From a virus: a DNA stretch of 59,500 nucleotides. The stretch is from the UHGV virus genome UHGV-0209830; one strand, written 5' to 3'. Below are positions 12,833-42,072 of the stretch, one piece after another. How positions within the stretch are numbered: the stretch's first letter is position 1; each line of letters begins with the position of its first letter. Made by a program: the position numbers and the translations under genes. The notes under the pieces were generated by a model. It made no database searches. It saw only the letters and a list, made by a program, of their open reading frames with translations, and was not told where the DNA came from.

Positions 12833-12963
12833 GGTTAAGCCCTAAATTCGGGCGCGGCGTGAAGGTTCTTTTGACGGGCTAACAATACCTACTTTGTGAT
12901 TTAGTCAATAGTTTTAGTAAAATAAAATCTATTAACAGTCACGTTGTTATGTGATTTAATTTT

Positions 12964-24551: not shown

Positions 24552-25319
24552 TCACCCCATAGATATCGAGGTTTCGGTAATAATACGTTTTGCGTCCAAC
24601 TCCCATGCTGTGATCACGTCTGCAATCACACTTATCGGCGCTTGTGTGGCATAAATACGCTCTTCTCCAATTGGTGCTGAAACATCCGTAAAGCCGACTT
24701 CTTTGGCATCCTGTATCGAGCAAATCAGCGGGACCGGGACACGAACAAGGTGAGTGGTTGCTTCAAATTGTGTACCTGTCATCAGGCGAAGCCGTGCGCC
24801 CAGCGAATTACACATCAGACTCATGGTCGCTTTATCAGTTGCCATTAACGTAACGTCATACGTCAGAATGGCCTGGGTGTATTCCAGTTCTGCTAAAGGC
24901 GTTCCGCTATCTGGTTCGCAAAAACTGGCTACTTTTTTGCGGTCAATCTGCTGATCATCGTTGATATAATTGATATCCATAGTGCGTGAGATATTGACCA
25001 GGGGGAGAGCATCCCGGTTAATGTTCTGGTTTTCAGGTTTTCTCCCTTGCCCGGCATTTGCGCGACGAACTGCTTTAAGAAACTCGATCGCATTGTCGAA
25101 ACGGGCCATATAGACACGCTCTGCTGGTGGACGATTCAGGAATGACGCAAAGCGTTTTTCTTCCGGCGCGGGGGCCACCAGTAAGATATCAGAAAAAATG
25201 TTGCTGATTAGCGTCGCAAACGCGTTATCCACGTTTTCAAAACCCGTGGTCTGGAATTTTCCTGTGCGTAAGGTTTGCCATTCACCGGTTCGCGCCAGGA
25301 GGGTTTTATTTGAAGTCAT
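24552..25319 (-). CDS. Hypothetical baseplate-associated protein (255 aa)
   Basis: ORF track; operon context. Confidence 0.5.
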   Translation of the reverse strand: MTSNKTLLARTGEWQTLRTGKFQTTGFENVDNAFATLISNIFSDILLVAPAPEEKRFASFLNRPPAERVYMARFDNAIEFLKAVRRANAGQGRKPENQNINRDALPLVNISRTMDINYINDDQQIDRKKVASFCEPDSGTPLAELEYTQAILTYDVTLMATDKATMSLMCNSLGARLRLMTGTQFEATTHLVRVPVPLICSIQDAKEVGFTDVSAPIGEERIYATQAPISVIADVITAWELDAKRIITETSISMG

Positions 25320-26149
25320 TCGATCACCCCGTTTTGAGTCGTATCAAAATTCCTGGCAGGTATGCAGTAGTAAAGCGAACCAACATGCTGTGTGCCGTAG
25401 CTAAAAATACGGTGCACGTACCACCAGCGGCGGGCTACGCCGTTTACCATCTCTTCATTCCATTCAAGAATTGAGCCGACGGGGACGTTATTTGCTGCAA
25501 TACGCAGAATCAGAACATCATCGGTTAAGCCATCCTGCTCACCGTCTGCGTCAATTGCATGGAAAGAGTCACGCCCGTCAGGGTTATCCAGCACATAAAC
25601 GATTTCAGGTTCCTGGTAAGTCAGTTCGCGTTGGTTGTTATCCAGTTCAGTGAATGACTCTTCTCCTGTTTCGTCGCTGACTACCCCATATGTGCCAACA
25701 TCTGGTCGATATAAGAGAGCCTGAAACGCGTCTGGGCTGGATTCAATAATCAGCATCCAGTCTGCGCGGATTTGGTCATTAAAGGCTTTATGCCCGTTAT
25801 AGCGTGCTTTTAACTGTGGAGTCGGTTCTCTGCCAGCCAGGGAAGGTGGAAGTATGGCTATATCTGATTCGCCAGCGTCCGGAGTAAGGCCACCGTTGCT
25901 ATCAGCAAAATTATCATGGCTATCAGCTTCGGCGGTGGATTGCTCTTCCAGAATGCTGAATGAATCCGGTCCGGCATTGCCATGTTCCGGCGCGCTTCCT
26001 GCATCCGCTTCAACCGTCGCTGGCGTTTCTCTCTGCGTGCTGTCATGTTCTGACTCCTTACTTGCCAGGTTTGCATCGTCAGCAAACCATTCGTCAAAAC
26101 GGCCCATAAGCATCCTCAAAGGTCGATTTATCAGGTATCGAGGGTGCAT
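25316..26149 (-). CDS. Hypothetical baseplate-associated protein (277 aa, start uncertain)
   Basis: ORF track; operon context. Confidence 0.45.
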   Translation of the reverse strand: MHPRYLINRPLRMLMGRFDEWFADDANLASKESEHDSTQRETPATVEADAGSAPEHGNAGPDSFSILEEQSTAEADSHDNFADSNGGLTPDAGESDIAILPPSLAGREPTPQLKARYNGHKAFNDQIRADWMLIIESSPDAFQALLYRPDVGTYGVVSDETGEESFTELDNNQRELTYQEPEIVYVLDNPDGRDSFHAIDADGEQDGLTDDVLILRIAANNVPVGSILEWNEEMVNGVARRWWYVHRIFSYGTQHVGSLYYCIPARNFDTTQNGVIE

Positions 26150-26252
26150 TATCTGGAGATTGTGATTTCAATTCATATCCCAGCATGGGACTAAAGTGCT
26201 TTACATTGTCCCATATTGGGACTACTCTGCTTACAGAGAAAAGGAATCTGTG

Positions 26253-26555
26253 ATGAAAATAATTTCGATAAAAACACTAAGGGATTTCTGGGCGAAGAAT
26301 CCCGATGCAGAACAGCCATTAAAGGCATGGGTTGATGAAGCAACAAAGGCTGACTGGAAAAATCCGGCTGAAATCAAAGAACAGTACCGGACAGCCAGCA
26401 TCCTTAAAAACAGGCGCGTGGTGTTCAATATTAAGGGAAATGATTACAGGTTAATTGTCGCAATTGCTTATCAGCGAGGATGGATGTTCGTTAAGTTTAT
26501 TGGAACACATAAGGAATACGATGCCATTGAAGCGGATACAATAGAACTGGAGTAA
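26253..26555 (+). CDS. higB: HigB-family mRNA interferase toxin
   Basis: VFNIKGNDYRLIVAI...FIGTHKEYDAI matches recalled HigB pattern; ATG at 26253 with RBS aaggaa. Confidence 0.8.
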   Translation: MKIISIKTLRDFWAKNPDAEQPLKAWVDEATKADWKNPAEIKEQYRTASILKNRRVVFNIKGNDYRLIVAIAYQRGWMFVKFIGTHKEYDAIEADTIELE

Positions 26556-26558
26556 ATC

Positions 26559-26918
26559 ATGAACATTAAACCTATCCGTACAGAACAAGATTATGAGGCC
26601 GCACTGCGTGCGGTCGAACCGATGTTCGATAACGAACCGGAAATGAACACACCGGAAGGCGATTTCTTTGAAATAATGTGCCTGCTCATTGAAGAGTACG
26701 AGAAAAAGCATTACCCAATTGAGCCACCATCACCTATTGAAGCCATTAAATTCCGTATGGAACAGCAAGGGCTGACCGTGAAGGATCTGGAACCGGCGAT
26801 TGGTAAGTCAAATCGTGTTTACGAAGTGCTAAATGGGACACGAAATTTAACGTTACCTATGATTCGTCGTTTACATTCCCAGTTTGGCATTCCTCTTGAA
26901 AGCCTGGTTGGTGTATGA
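26559..26918 (+). CDS. higA: HigA antitoxin (HTH, XRE-like)
   Basis: Immediately downstream of higB; C-terminal HTH segment. Confidence 0.75.
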   Translation: MNIKPIRTEQDYEAALRAVEPMFDNEPEMNTPEGDFFEIMCLLIEEYEKKHYPIEPPSPIEAIKFRMEQQGLTVKDLEPAIGKSNRVYEVLNGTRNLTLPMIRRLHSQFGIPLESLVGV

Positions 26919-26952
26919 GTTTGGCGGTCTGTATGACCGCCTTTGTTGTCAA

Positions 26953-28149
26953 TCAAGAACCTTTCTTCACGTACTCCATAAACATTTTTTCAGCTTGCTC
27001 AGGTGACGTTCCTGCCATGACCAGTGCATCAATGAACGCCTGCTTCTTCAGTGCGAACTGATCGGCAAGGCGTTGCTGAAGTTCCTTATTTTTCTGTTTC
27101 TCACGTTGCAAGGCCGCTTCTTTTGCAGCCGCCCGTTTTTTCTGTGCGTCTGACAACTTTCTGGCCCTGGTCAGCTGGTCACGTAGCTTGTCAATCTTCC
27201 CGTTGTCCTTTGCCAGTTTTGTACTTAAAGCGGCCTGGCGCTTCTGATAGAGCCTCCATTCGCGTTTGGCGGCTTCAACGTTCGTTTTACTGCTACGATT
27301 GCGATTAAACTCCTTCTCGTCTTCTTTTGAGAAGTGTTTAGTTGTACGGCGGCGATCGTCACCAAATGCAATTTGCGTTGCAGCCTTTTGTAGCGCACGA
27401 GCAATACTCATTTGCCAACTGGCGGACTGTAACCGCGTCATTGAGTGGATCACGTGTTTACAGGCGACGCCTTGCAGCTTCGGGTTGCGAACTTTTGGAT
27501 AGGCGTATTCTTTTGGCGGTGCCAGGGCAAAGTTACCCGCAGTGGCGATGTAACGATACCAGTATTGATGACGACCACAGTCACAATCGAAAGACACTCG
27601 CCCGGCGCACAGTGATTTAGTGATTTTGAGAGCTGATTTATCGTCTTCTGCGATGTCATCAACCATCTGATCCCATTCTTCAAAGCGTATCCGGACGATA
27701 TGGTGCTGGTGGACGGATATATCCGATGCTTCTACGCGGATATTAATCACATTGTGGCGAAGAGATACGGGGGTAGCTCTTTTGATACCAGATCCGTCAT
27801 CCACGGCGTTATTTGCACGCTTAATATCGATTGCCTGGCTGGATGCCACCAGCTGGGCGTATGTGATGCCAGCCGTCTTGCTGTCATATTTTTCGCGCGT
27901 TTTACTCCGTAGCTTTTCGAAACCTTTCAGGTCGTCTCGCGTGAAGAACGTGCCGCCTTTTTTCTTCCCTAACTTGAGAATATCTTCGGCGGATTTGTTC
28001 CTCAGTCTACCTGGCGTCAGCGTCCGGTGAGCTTGTCGGCGCTTACGGGTTTGTTCTTTCCTGATAATCTCGAATAAACGCGTGAAGTCCTTAGAGGACA
28101 GGCCGTCAGTGATATAGCGCCCGTCCTGTTTTTTCAGGAAATCAGGCAT
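26953..28149 (-). CDS. SWIM-type zinc-finger protein with coiled-coil C-terminus (398 aa)
   Basis: CDCGRHQYW...(32)...CKH pattern; KR/Q-rich coiled coil; function unknown. Confidence 0.5.
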   Translation of the reverse strand: MPDFLKKQDGRYITDGLSSKDFTRLFEIIRKEQTRKRRQAHRTLTPGRLRNKSAEDILKLGKKKGGTFFTRDDLKGFEKLRSKTREKYDSKTAGITYAQLVASSQAIDIKRANNAVDDGSGIKRATPVSLRHNVINIRVEASDISVHQHHIVRIRFEEWDQMVDDIAEDDKSALKITKSLCAGRVSFDCDCGRHQYWYRYIATAGNFALAPPKEYAYPKVRNPKLQGVACKHVIHSMTRLQSASWQMSIARALQKAATQIAFGDDRRRTTKHFSKEDEKEFNRNRSSKTNVEAAKREWRLYQKRQAALSTKLAKDNGKIDKLRDQLTRARKLSDAQKKRAAAKEAALQREKQKNKELQQRLADQFALKKQAFIDALVMAGTSPEQAEKMFMEYVKKGS

Positions 28150-28471
28150 TTTCTATCTCCGGTTCCGCGCTCGCGTAATCACGGATCTTGTTCCTCAGCC
28201 ATGCCACATCAGGAAGAGTTAACGTGGTCCCGGCGGGCATTTCTTCCATTTCTGACTCATGGCCCACCAGCACCCGGAATACCCAGCGCAAATCTGCATT
28301 GCCATACGCCCTGTAGGCTGCAAGGTCTGAACGATATACTTCATCAATCTTTATCGTGTACTGGAAATTATCAGAGTGATACTCCGATACCCGCTTAATC
28401 ATTTCCTGGTGAAACAGCGCACGAAAAATATCGTCTTCAATGTACCTATCGTCGAGTCTGCTATAGCCCAT
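28142..28471 (-). CDS. Hypothetical protein (109 aa)
   Basis: ORF track; start overlaps stop of next gene. Confidence 0.45.
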   Translation of the reverse strand: MGYSRLDDRYIEDDIFRALFHQEMIKRVSEYHSDNFQYTIKIDEVYRSDLAAYRAYGNADLRWVFRVLVGHESEMEEMPAGTTLTLPDVAWLRNKIRDYASAEPEIENA

Positions 28472-28664
28472 AACAAAGCCTCTCAGTCATAACCTGGGGG
28501 AAACTGTATGCAGGGTGTGAAATGCGAGAAACAGACAGGCCACCAGTTCAGGGGGATGTGGTTCATAAATCCCCTCACTGGTGACAAGTGACTTTCATTA
28601 ATCTTTATGCGGGGGCCAGCTTCATTTGCTGGCATTAGATTAAAAATTAAACGGAGTGAATGAC

Positions 28665-28802
28665 ATGGATGTTATCTTCGAATTATTAATGCTAATTGAT
28701 CTGTTTATGAACGCTTCATTGACCACGCAAATACTGGCGTCAATATTTTTGTTACTCTTCTACCTGGTATTGAGGGAGTTAACAAAGCTACTAATGTGAT
28801 CA
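28665..28802 (+). CDS. Small hydrophobic protein (about 45 aa) candidate
   Basis: ATG preceded by ggag RBS; not in track (under 60 aa); convergent with gene ending at 28800. Confidence 0.3.
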
Positions 28803-29453
28803 AAGTATCACGGTATCTTCATCAACTTCTTTCCCAGTCAGTGTCTTTGGCTGGGAGGTGCCTGCTTTAACTTTTTCATGCCCAATAATGGACAGGAACG
28901 AAGCGAGTATGCCTGTTTTTTGCTCTTTCTCGACTGTACCGGTCATCTGCTCTACGTAATCCGCACTGGCTACATTGTGGTATACGGTCGCGTAGCAACA
29001 CAGGATCATCAAAATATGCTCCGGCCTGATATCCTGCCAGTTCACCCGGTAGACTTCTTCTCCGTTACCGTTGTATTCGGTGTCAACGATGGAGTCAGGG
29101 ATTTCGAAAGCACCTTTGTTATTTTGCGGCAGGGATAATAGCTTCTGGAGTTTTAACTCTCTGTATCTTTCCATCCCGACGATGATTGCTGCTCTGCCAT
29201 CGGCATGACGGGTCTTGAGAGTCACCTGGCTTGCTCCGGTGCCAGCGGAGATCGTTGGCGTAATTTCGTCTACCAGTACCTTAAATTTGCTTTTCCGCAG
29301 GGCTGCTATAGCTGGAGGAATTTTTTGCTTTTGCTCCAATGCTGACGCGGGAAGGGGTTTTACTTCGTTAATAATGAGAGCACCGTCTTTCAGTATTGCA
29401 GTGAGCATTTGAGGCTTGCTGGTGGTCAGGCTGAATATTGCGATCTTTTCCAT
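28800..29453 (-). CDS. Hypothetical protein (about 217 aa)
   Basis: Track ORF 28800..29495 starts with GTG inside a hairpin; ATG MEKIAIF with RBS ggaggaagg is the more likely start. Confidence 0.5.
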   Translation of the reverse strand: MEKIAIFSLTTSKPQMLTAILKDGALIINEVKPLPASALEQKQKIPPAIAALRKSKFKVLVDEITPTISAGTGASQVTLKTRHADGRAAIIVGMERYRELKLQKLLSLPQNNKGAFEIPDSIVDTEYNGNGEEVYRVNWQDIRPEHILMILCCYATVYHNVASADYVEQMTGTVEKEQKTGILASFLSIIGHEKVKAGTSQPKTLTGKEVDEDTVIL

Positions 29454-29721
29454 TGTCCTTCCTCCACGGATGACGGATACAAAAAAAGGCCGCACATGGC
29501 GGCCTGCTTTGGCGTTATGACTCCCTACCGCGCTTCGGCTGAAAGTTAATCGTCAAAAGAACCTTCAACGGGAGCCGTTAGCGCGATGGATTATGTGCAG
29601 TTTGTGATTTCCAAAATAGTGTCAACCACTTTTGGTGGATTTTATTTTTTAACCGAAATTTGGCCTAAATCATGTTTATGTAGTTAATTGTTTTTATAAC
29701 ATAAAACTTCATTTTGTTTGC

Positions 29722-30345
29722 ATGAAGGATGGTGTAGTGAAGTTAAGGGCTTTAGGGGCCGCGCTCGCGGCTATGTTGGGATGCGTATCTGCTAATACTG
29801 CCAATGCAACTGCGTTACCTGCACAATTCAGGGCAGGGCAGCAGGTTATGAATAACGCTGGTGGAGATCATTCACAAGCGGCCATTATGGACTTTTGCAA
29901 GAGGGAGGGCATTCCATTACGGCCTGTTGGAACTCAGTTTATTGGTAAAACTGACTTTTGCGTTTTTGCATATACAGCATATCTGACGGACAAAGCTATA
30001 ACAAAAACAGGTTATTCAACCAAAGATACTCTTTCCAGATTAAGTCAGGGATGGCAGCAATTCGAAGTGTATCGCCAGCAAGGATTAGGTGAGTTATTGC
30101 AACCTCTTTTTATGCTTGCGTTGGTGCCAGAGGGGCAGCAATTTTTGGTTAAAAAGGGAATGCTTCGCCAAAGTGATATTGCCGGGTTCGATAGCATGAT
30201 GGCTTATGAGCGCAAACTAACCGAGCAGCGAAATAAAAAACCATCTGCTTCATGTGTGCAAAGTAAAACAGCAGAATACAGTGCAGTAGCCGGGCCTTTA
30301 GCCAAACAAATGGCAGAGCAATGGTGTAAAAAATACGGGCAATAA
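29722..30345 (+). CDS. Secreted/periplasmic hypothetical protein (207 aa)
   Basis: N-terminal signal peptide. Confidence 0.5.
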   Translation: MKDGVVKLRALGAALAAMLGCVSANTANATALPAQFRAGQQVMNNAGGDHSQAAIMDFCKREGIPLRPVGTQFIGKTDFCVFAYTAYLTDKAITKTGYSTKDTLSRLSQGWQQFEVYRQQGLGELLQPLFMLALVPEGQQFLVKKGMLRQSDIAGFDSMMAYERKLTEQRNKKPSASCVQSKTAEYSAVAGPLAKQMAEQWCKKYGQ

Positions 30346-30365
30346 GTTACGCAGCGGAGGCAGAA

Positions 30366-30758
30366 TTGAAAAGATTGGCTATTGCTTTACTGGCGTCTTT
30401 CCCTTTGATCGCGAGCGCCGGAAATTTACAAGTTAAGTGCGGTCGGTTTGATATAAAAATCTATCCAGATGCCATATTTCTGAATGGGAATAAGGTTGAT
30501 AACGCACACCGAAAAACTGAATCTGACGTAATGAGCTATGTGTTCCAGGAGTATGCGGAGATGGGGGGAACTTACACGCTGTACTCGCTGGATGTTCCTT
30601 CTCGCGGTGATATGACATTATCCCATCAATGGCAGAACGCCGATGGCGAAGCTCTGCGCGAGGTTAAAACAGAAAAATGTGGCACTTTCCATTCTTTTAA
30701 AGGGAAAGCGCCAAATGTTAAATCTGTGCTTGAAAAACAGCGCGCAGGTGAGCTTTAA
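30366..30758 (+). CDS. Secreted/periplasmic hypothetical protein (130 aa)
   Basis: Signal peptide MKRLAIALLASFPLIASA. Confidence 0.5.
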   Translation: MKRLAIALLASFPLIASAGNLQVKCGRFDIKIYPDAIFLNGNKVDNAHRKTESDVMSYVFQEYAEMGGTYTLYSLDVPSRGDMTLSHQWQNADGEALREVKTEKCGTFHSFKGKAPNVKSVLEKQRAGEL

Positions 30759-31145
30759 ACACCTTTAACCACGGAGATGCCGTTCCCTGCACGATAGCGG
30801 CGGGGAACGGAATTCTCCATCAGGTCACGAATTACTCCCGCCTCATGTAGTTCCACTGTTTCCCAGTATCTGTTTGTCACCAATTACGCCCCGTTCCGCC
30901 AGGGGAAGGTATGAACGAGCTTCTGCTTCGGTTGCAGCCATGACGCAGATATACAGGTGTTTTTGGCAGGAATAGAAACGCCAGATAAATTCAGAATGAG
31001 TTGGGGTGGGGATAGTAGCGATATTGGCAGCCTCCTTTGACTAAGTTAAGGAGCTACCGCGTGAGGTTCCAATTCCGGCACCCGTTTTTCTAAGGTGCCG
31101 TAGAAATATACCCCACGATAAGGCCAGGGCGCAAAAGTCAGTATT

Positions 31146-41398: not shown

Positions 41399-41470
41399 GC
41401 TGCAAAGTGCTGGTGCTTTATACCTGTGAAGTTTATAGTTGTGTACACATAACAAGTACATGAGGTGTTT

Positions 41471-41692
41471 ATGCAATCCATTAACTTCCGTACCGCGCGC
41501 GGCAACCTTTCTGAAGTGCTCAACAATGTTGAAGCCGGGGAAGAGGTTGAAATCACCCGCAGAGGCCGAGAGCCAGCAGTAATTGTCAGCAAGGCTACTT
41601 TTGAAGCCTACAAAAAAGCGGCGCTGGATGCTGAATTTGCATCCCTGTTTGACACCCTGGACTCCACCAACAAGGAACTGGTTAACCGATAA
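41471..41692 (+). CDS. phd: Phd antitoxin
   Basis: [49 protein letters not shown] matches recalled P1 Phd; track starts 2 codons upstream at GTG. Confidence 0.9.
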
Positions 41693-42072
41693 TGAGGCAT
41701 ATATCACCGGAAGAACTTATTGCGCTTCATGATGCGAATATAAGCCGCTACGGCGGCCTGCCGGGAATGTCAGATCCGGGTAGGGCAGAGGCCATTATCG
41801 GGAGAGTTCAGGCCAGAGTTGCCTACGAAGAGATCACCGACCTTTTCGAAGTCTCCGCCACCTACCTGGTGGCTACGGCGAGAGGGCATATATTCAATGA
41901 TGCCAATAAGCGTACCGCGCTAAACAGTGCGCTGCTATTTCTACGCCGTAACGGTATACAGGTATATGATTCTCCCGTGCTGGTGGAACTTGCGGTGGGG
42001 GCCGCAACTGGTGAAATCCCCGTATCTTCAGTAGCGGAAAAACTACGTGAATTATTTGGTTCCAATATTTGA
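41692..42072 (+). CDS. doc: Doc toxin (Fic-fold)
   Basis: Overlaps phd stop; matches recalled P1 Doc with a divergent C-terminus. Confidence 0.9.

Follow-up and report, generated by a model that had tools for sequence, protein, structure and literature searches.

The closest described relatives of the locus analysed here are the phage-plasmids P1 and Escherichia phage D6. Published work on P1 counts mat, 25 and 26 as "known essential genes" (PMC10695390), and 21 genes have been called "extremely conserved" in P1-like phage-plasmids, those for gp7, gp25 and gp26 among them (PMC9603915). P1 gp26 is similar to T4 gp53 and has been modelled in the cryo-electron microscopy structure of the P1 baseplate (bioRxiv 10.1101/2025.07.21.665459), while gp25 is a low-abundance virion protein with a weak mass-spectrometry signal and no assigned structural role. 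In D6-like plasmids, a higA-higB region has been read as a module for post-segregational killing (PMC6799933). Two further points of reference are the toxin-antitoxin pair HigB/HigA of E. coli K-12 and PD-lambda-2, an abortive-infection system validated by experiment (Vassallo et al, 2022; PMC9519451). Here, we analyse five neighbouring genes in a stretch of 59,500 nucleotides (nt) from the UHGV virus genome UHGV-0209830 (the window). An initial annotation had described them as one block of cargo and a candidate defence or addiction island, made up of HigB/HigA, a SWIM-type zinc-finger protein of 398 amino acids (aa), and partners of 109 and 217 aa. We find that the interval is almost certainly two separate things: the leading half of a late morphogenetic operon conserved among relatives, and a toxin-antitoxin cassette on the opposite strand.

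A HigB/HigA cassette splits a conserved late operon

A match to Escherichia phage D6 covers 71% of region 25800-30800 of UHGV-0209830, with 97% nucleotide identity. Whole-window tblastn searches identified counterparts of the P1 genes pmgB, tub, pmgC, bplB, pmgG, 21, 22, 23, hrdC, dmt, 5, 6, 24, 7, 25, 26, mat, ref, ppp, humD, phd, doc, cre, pacB and lpa. Judged by these matches, the window is a D6-like phage-plasmid of the P1 family. Its Lpa is just 31% identical to that of P1. The window also encodes the phd-doc addiction module (41465-42072), with identity to P1 of 100% for Phd and 91% for Doc; together with HigB/HigA this makes two toxin-antitoxin pairs.

We compared the genes around gene 25 in relatives from metagenomes and genomes, denoted here by L numbers. 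In about 22 diverged relatives, mat-26-25-7-24-6-5 forms a single operon with no interruption, and this operon is distributed across phage-plasmids of Enterobacterales. Gene calls in L008-L011 place mat-26-25-7-24-6-5 in one tightly packed operon in which genes 25 and 7 overlap or abut, and match coordinates give the same arrangement in L013-L023, L025, L027, L029, L031 and L032. This second set comes from Pantoea, Enterobacter, Rosenbergiella, Xenorhabdus, Serratia, Erwinia, Yersinia and Buttiauxella, and a 26-25-7-6-like order is kept in distant contigs from Desulfobacteraceae and other Proteobacteria (L033-L035). In the window, the HigB/HigA pair splits this operon between gene 25 and gene 7.

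At the same position in L008-L011 and P1, the junction of genes 25 and 7 measures -4 to +4 bp. These uninterrupted relatives, together with the 263-aa calls in RefSeq, agree with a gene 7 start at ATG 26107 (MGRFDEW), and this start sets the limits of the insert (Table 1). The site between genes 25 and 7 is a variable slot, and HigB/HigA is its accessory cargo, because the cassette has a lower GC content than its flanks (0.428 versus 0.476-0.493), its genes are oriented opposite to the surrounding tail operon, it is present, absent or swapped in close relatives, and it is absent from most diverged ones.

Of the two possible starts of higB, ATG 26253 is favoured over GTG 26196, from which the block had initially been taken to begin, because an AAGGA ribosome-binding site lies 7 nt upstream of the ATG and because alignments to Pfam, PHROG, PADLOC and PDB entries all open at residue 1 of the resulting 100-aa form. 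The toxin gene comes first and is tightly coupled to higA, with 3 nt between the higB stop codon and the higA start. HigB matches all 74 positions of the Pfam profile PF09907 (HigB_toxin) at E 3.3e-34, scoring 117 bits where the cut-off is 27, and its residues 1-92 align with the HigB structures of E. coli and Shigella (PDB 5IFG and 5YCL). HigA carries the Pfam domain HTH_3 at residues 63-115 (24.2 bits against a cut-off of 23), aligns over residues 6-112 with the HigA chains of the same two PDB entries (E 1.5e-8), and is 97% identical to D6 orf72 by tblastn. The pair is predicted to be a canonical two-gene type II toxin-antitoxin module, HigBA, of the E. coli K-12 kind.

Both palindromes upstream of higB have the form TCCCA-N3-TGGGA, and the second is flanked by a -35-like TTTACA and a -10-like TACTCT, as read from the sequence. 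By analogy with the self-regulation typical of type II toxin-antitoxin pairs, HigA would be expected to bind there. At the other end of the cassette, a terminator-like hairpin stands directly before the gene 25 stop codon; inspection of the minus strand found no T-run after this hairpin.

The three remaining proteins have clear P1 counterparts by tblastn. The 398-aa protein is 55% identical to P1 gp25 (E 3e-122) and matches phrog_1722, "tail protein" (E 1e-195). The 109-aa protein is 41% identical to P1 gp26 (E 1e-18) and matches phrog_1269, "baseplate wedge subunit" (E 2e-36), with a sub-threshold score against Pfam Phage_gp53 (13.6 bits versus a cut-off of 21). The 217-aa protein is 34% identical to P1 Mat over 208 aa (E 3e-36) and matches phrog_1837 (E 2e-94). 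D6 records carry matching annotations for all three. On the other side of the cassette, the gene 7 product is 46% identical to P1 gp7 and 95% identical to D6 orf69 by tblastn, and belongs to phrog_1906, "tail". Searches of PADLOC at E ≤ 0.01 returned zero defence families for each of the gp25-, gp26- and Mat-like proteins; NCBIfam gave no match for any window protein in the block, and Rfam gave nothing at E ≤ 1 across 25000-31000.

The initial annotation thus fares differently in its parts. All five open reading frames (ORFs) exist where it placed them, and the PF09907, HTH_3 and PDB 5IFG/5YCL matches bear out its naming of HigB/HigA. It had put this pair after the baseplate operon, and the pair instead lies inside the operon; it had left the 398-, 109- and 217-aa proteins unassigned, and these are gp25, gp26 and Mat. 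The cargo interpretation holds for HigB/HigA but not for gp25, gp26 and Mat, which are conserved core genes. Conservation of the genes as a core across P1-like phages had been named as the observation that would speak against an island, and this is what we find for mat, 26 and 25. The same division appears in the follow-up that had been proposed: profile searches place gp25 and gp26 in PHROG tail and baseplate families and none of the three proteins in a PADLOC defence model, and a comparison of relatives shows HigB/HigA to vary and mat-26-25 to be kept at the head of the operon in most of them. The block as a whole is already known biology, being annotated in RefSeq and in D6 and discussed in earlier work (PMC6799933), and it does not merit further treatment as a candidate defence system.

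Table 1. Features of the split operon and its cassette (window coordinates)
Feature	Position	Strand	Description
Gene 7 counterpart	25316..26107	-	Tail protein, 263 aa; first gene of the downstream half-operon 7-24-6-5
Candidate late promoter for 7-24-6-5	26148..26168	-	Box AAATCACAA, 6 nt, GATAAT
Inserted cargo cassette	26108..26952		845 bp; from comparing the junction in L008-L011 and P1 with the window
Two operator-like palindromes	26178..26221		TCCCAGCATGGGA and GTCCCATATTGGGAC; higBA promoter region; inverted repeat I1
higB	26253..26555	+	Predicted RelE-fold mRNA-interferase toxin, 100 aa
higA	26559..26918	+	Predicted antitoxin with C-terminal Xre-type helix-turn-helix, 119 aa
Intrinsic-terminator-like hairpin and T-rich tail	26923..26949	+	GGCGGTCTGTATGACCGCC then TTTGTTGT; ends higBA, directly before the gene 25 stop codon
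Gene 25 counterpart	26953..28149	-	"Tail stability" protein, 398 aa; P1 gp25 match
SWIM-like Cys2-Cys-His motif of gp25	27454..27585	-	C189-x-C191 ... C230-x-H232
Gene 26 counterpart	28142..28471	-	T4 gp53-like baseplate wedge, 109 aa; P1 gp26 match; 8-nt overlap with gene 25
Second small insert, between mat and 26	28585..28799	+	P1-type late-promoter-like site 28585-28604 and 44-aa hydrophobic ORF 28665-28799
mat counterpart	28800..29453	-	"Maturation control", 217 aa; P1 Mat match; first gene of the operon
Late-promoter-like box and leader upstream of mat	29477..29610	-	Box 29590-29610; terminator hairpin 29487-29505, T-rich tail to about 29477

Late-promoter-like boxes ahead of both operon halves

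A recurrent box lies on the coding strand upstream of four late genes of the window, namely pmgB, 23, 7 and mat. Among interrupted elements, the four examined (the window, D6, L006 and L007) all have a box of this kind ahead of gene 7, and D6, L006, L007 and L009 have one ahead of mat; relatives without the insertion leave no space there for a promoter of gene 7. Genes 7-24-6-5 therefore appear to have a late-promoter copy of their own, and with such a copy in place the slot would tolerate cargo. The locus would then be a case of a toxin-antitoxin cassette set head-on in a late structural operon, with an apparent extra late-promoter copy that would restore expression of the cut-off genes.

We also considered P1-type late promoters as the driver of the two operon halves. 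A position weight matrix (PWM) built from 10 P1 late promoters was scanned over the window, and the P1 box was not enriched (16 matches versus 12.7 expected). This candidate was rejected, as the scan returned one strong match only, on the wrong strand. A scan for the sigma-70 consensus did no better than on shuffled sequence.

The leader of mat is about 130 nt long. A strong intrinsic terminator (AGGCCGCCATGTGCGGCCT then T7) closes it, roughly 25 nt short of the mat start. A hairpin and T-run just before mat are also present in L006, L007, L008, L010 and L011, which suggests control by attenuation or antitermination, or a small RNA. Within this leader, at 29552-29567, lies one member of an exact 16-nt inverted pair (GTCAAAAGAACCTTCA / TGAAGGTTCTTTTGAC), and its partner lies at 12860-12875 in the leader of the major-capsid gene 23. 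Each sits just downstream of a late-promoter-like box, and no other copy is found in the window when up to 3 mismatches are allowed. The pair could give either complementary leader RNAs or one asymmetric protein-binding site in opposite orientations.

The gene 25/gene 7 slot turns over among close relatives

The slot is occupied solely in a subclade that comprises the window, D6, L006, L007, L012, L028 and L050, in which gp25 is at least 63% identical to that of the window. Its content differs from member to member. The window and seven plasmids hold window-type HigB/HigA alone, L050 has window-type HigB/HigA with an orf73-like gene, L028 has a diverged HigB/HigA and nothing else, L006 has a diverged HigB/HigA with orf73, and L007 has the orf73-like gene alone. 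D6 carries a RelE/ParE-type toxin with its own HigA, an intact orphan window-type higA (orf72; L001 7239-7598) and orf73; pE2863-2 has the same arrangement with its window-type higA cut down to a pseudogene (L049 2508-2702).

Among 5,426 complete E. coli genomes, 99 contain at least 80% of D6-type gene 25 by query coverage. A trace of the cassette is present in 97 of these, plasmid-borne every time, and the full window-type pair in 19. Most D6-like E. coli plasmids retain window-type higA only as a truncated pseudogene, beside a different toxin-antitoxin pair. Intact copies of the window-type cassette, 95-100% identical, occur in Shigella and Salmonella plasmids as well as in no fewer than 19 of the complete E. 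coli genomes.

These variants suggest that the slot may be a site of competition between addiction modules, in which a RelE-type pair displaced HigB and the old HigA stayed behind as an orphan. The orphan HigA could then serve as an anti-addiction factor against window-type plasmids. Taken as a series, the slot variants, an orphan antitoxin among them, document the turnover of toxin-antitoxin pairs in a phage-plasmid family that is clinically widespread.

The orf73-like gene is absent from the window. In D6 (L001 7661-8389) and in its counterparts in L006, L007 and L050 it encodes 242-245 aa, is AT-rich, and recurs with or without a toxin-antitoxin pair. Read by eye, the D6 product has hydrophobic segments and the look of a membrane protein containing a coiled coil; searches of PADLOC and NCBIfam gave no match.

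Plasmid addiction as the probable role of HigBA

The explanation that best fits the block overall, and one we hold to be likely, is a conserved operon carrying a HigBA cassette that serves as an addiction module. That plasmid addiction is the main role of HigBA we consider moderately probable. HigB would act as a ribosome-dependent mRNA endonuclease, and HigA would neutralise it and repress the operon at the two promoter palindromes. In a daughter cell that lacked the low-copy plasmid prophage, labile HigA would decay and HigB would halt growth. Immediately ahead of gene 7, a separate copy of the late-promoter-like box would drive the tail genes cut off by the insertion. HigBA would act as a second addiction module alongside phd-doc, in agreement with the published reading of D6-like plasmids (PMC6799933).

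Two points weigh against this account. The box pattern AAATCACA(A/C)-N6-NATNNT has 4 matches in the window versus 0.01 expected, but this enrichment is circular, since the pattern was drawn from the same four window sites, and only its conservation in relatives is independent. In addition, HigB gives a strong score against component A of PD-lambda-2, and HigA against the N-terminal part of component B.

Prophage toxin-antitoxin pairs often defend against other phages. HigBA might thus be mainly an abortive-infection module that protects the lysogen in competition between phages, with addiction as a secondary effect. The PD-lambda-2 matches favour this possibility: HigB aligns with the PADLOC model PD-Lambda-2_A (PDLC03979) at E 1.2e-41 over positions 1-96 of 97, and HigA with PD-Lambda-2_B at E 9.5e-43 over positions 1-119 of 402. 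Defence by PD-lambda-2, however, needs the C-terminal ImmA/IrrE peptidase domain of B and a third gene, C (PMC9519451). HigA in the window is 119 aa long and has no peptidase domain, and the 34 bp between the higA stop and the gene 25 stop contain no ORF and so leave no component C. The best 120 HigA homologues listed are all 113-134 aa long, with no fusion of about 400 aa among them. We therefore rejected membership in PD-lambda-2, for want of a peptidase domain and of component C. A low-copy plasmid prophage also gains directly from addiction, and we judge a mainly anti-phage role to be unlikely.

The cassette could also be a functionless passenger, a recombination leftover decaying in a permissive slot. 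It does get replaced and decay, as shown by the truncated higA that is all most D6-like E. coli plasmids keep of it. In the window, however, higB and higA are full-length against their profiles and tightly coupled, with palindromes and terminator intact, and the identical type of intact cassette recurs in the E. coli genomes and the Shigella and Salmonella plasmids described above; we find this explanation quite improbable.

Finally, it is hardly credible that the five genes form one defence, anti-defence or addiction island with the SWIM-like protein and its partners as effectors or sensors: mat-26-25 and a diverged HigA/HigB are kept as a block without 7-24-6-5 on more than 150 large plasmids, and gp25 has the weak virion signal and lack of structural role noted above, but mat-26-25 share an operon with tail genes in every lineage sampled, most lineages have no toxin-antitoxin pair in the slot, the three proteins match gp25, gp26 (part of the P1 baseplate model) and Mat of P1, where their genes are counted essential in the source cited above, with zero PADLOC hits, and the plasmid block was rejected as support because the near-equal identity of its listed copies to the window (83-84%, one 81%) suggests a single inherited remnant.

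Candidate folds and sites in gp25 and Mat

The initial annotation had called the 398-aa protein a SWIM-type zinc-finger protein. A SWIM-like signature is present: the motif C189-x-C191-x38-C230-x-H232 is invariant and fits the CxCxnCxH pattern that gp25 shares with SWIM zinc fingers (PF04434; for example ZSWIM8). A spacer of 38 residues is long for a SWIM domain, and the profile does not bear the name out, since PF04434 was not matched and no Pfam family was found at E ≤ 10 for either the window protein or P1 gp25. An AlphaFold 2 model of gp25 with a predicted local distance difference test (pLDDT) score of 81 gave nothing significant against the PDB in Foldseek. We propose that gp25 may be a zinc-binding SWIM-like factor in assembly or ejection. 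Its invariant Cys2-Cys-His site offers a testable structural hypothesis for an essential gene without an assigned mechanism.

Homologues of gp25 number 306 at E ≤ 0.001; those listed are mostly about 400 aa long, and many lie on contigs of 80-100 kb. Distant homologues at 30-40% identity (L033-L048; Desulfobacteraceae, Psychrobacter, Collimonas and Burkholderiaceae contigs) keep the stretch CDCGRH..[WF][YL]RY.AT.G...RNP.L.G..CKH nearly unchanged, so that the family extends well beyond P1-like phage-plasmids. Some of them are on chromosomal-looking contigs of 0.15-1.9 Mb.

Mat qualifies by fold as resembling the RNase H-like nuclease domain of the terminase large subunit (TerL), in a comparison with T4 gp17 (3CPE), RB49 (3C6A), Sf6 (5C12) and human cytomegalovirus UL89 (3N4P). 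Unlike TerL, it is a stand-alone protein of 217 aa without an ATPase domain. Seven acidic residues are invariant (D62, E63, D85, E95, E99, E145 and D165), but residues 2-8, which form strand beta-1, have no conserved acidic residue where RNase H-like nucleases normally have one. A profile search with Mat found nothing among PDB sequences, nor did a search with PacB, and hhalign detected no similarity of Mat to PacB, the TerL of the window itself. Mat may be a protein of terminase-nuclease-like or resolvase-like type that stands alone and works on DNA alongside PacA/PacB during maturation or packaging. As with gp25, the terminase-nuclease-like fold provides a testable structural hypothesis for an essential gene without an assigned mechanism. 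A joint reading, with Mat as a nuclease- or resolvase-like protein, gp25 as a zinc-binding factor and addiction modules competing at the 25/7 slot, is tentative and, taken whole, rather doubtful.

Other variable sites and a plasmid remnant

A second small insert separates mat from gene 26. The resulting gap of about 330 bp is confined to the D6/E. coli subclade, and elsewhere mat and 26 abut or overlap. The promoter-like site within it has a PWM score of 19.5, which was reached in 5 of 200 shuffles, and is the only strong P1-type match in the window. It points away from the operon, toward the very hydrophobic 44-aa ORF (phrog_38362), and could respond to a P1-type Lpa rather than to the element's own.

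Between ref and mat, at 29722-30758 on the plus strand, lies a second variable slot with two proteins of no known function, of 207 and 130 aa (phrog_12786 and phrog_13864). Both have signal-peptide-like N-termini and look secreted. Elsewhere this slot contains a colicin M-like gene (L008), two toxin-antitoxin pairs (L009) or simB-like genes (D6).

The plasmid block weighed above is a ref'-mat-26-25-HigA-HigB remnant of a diverged D6-like lineage. The plasmids that carry it are mostly from Klebsiella, and many are typed as conjugative; one example is at L005 7775-11343 (MK036889.1, Klebsiella pneumoniae pA1966-IMP). Its hosts are large IncFIB/IncFII conjugative plasmids, in which it is flanked by lactate and arsenic operons; its mat, 26 and 25 ORFs are intact, and no further phage genes are found. 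On the simplest reading, the remnant probably persists because it lies beside an addictive toxin-antitoxin pair.

Comparison with known systems

P1 (NC_005856) has the same 26-25-7-24-6-5 genes in the same order and on the same strand, with 3 bp between 25 and 7 and no cargo. Its mat lies elsewhere, beside ref near cre, whereas mat is the first gene of the operon in D6-like elements and in most of the other relatives.

D6 and the D6-like plasmid prophages (MF356679; pYU39_89; PMC6799933) have their higA-higB region in the same gene 7/25 slot and in the same orientation as the window. The D6 toxin, orf70, is of the RelE/ParE type, does not match HigB of the window, and has its own HigA in orf71. 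D6 adds orf73 and the orphan window-type higA; the window instead has the cognate HigB and lacks orf73.

Component A and the N-terminal part of component B of PD-lambda-2 are close profile matches to HigB and HigA of the window. Beyond the missing peptidase domain and third gene, the two differ in that B of PD-lambda-2 is toxic alone and is rescued by A, the reverse of the canonical HigBA arrangement that would be expected for the window.

The window pair shares with HigB/HigA of E. coli K-12 (YgjN/YgjM; PDB 5IFG; Shigella, 5YCL) a PF09907 toxin, a toxin gene upstream of the antitoxin gene, and an antitoxin with an N-terminal toxin-binding part and a C-terminal Xre-type helix-turn-helix. The alignment with the E. 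coli and Shigella proteins is essentially full length, though sequence similarity is low (E about 1e-7 to 1e-8). HigA of K-12 is 138 aa long, compared to 119 aa in the window, and the K-12 pair is chromosomal, whereas the window pair is carried on a phage-plasmid, within a tail operon.

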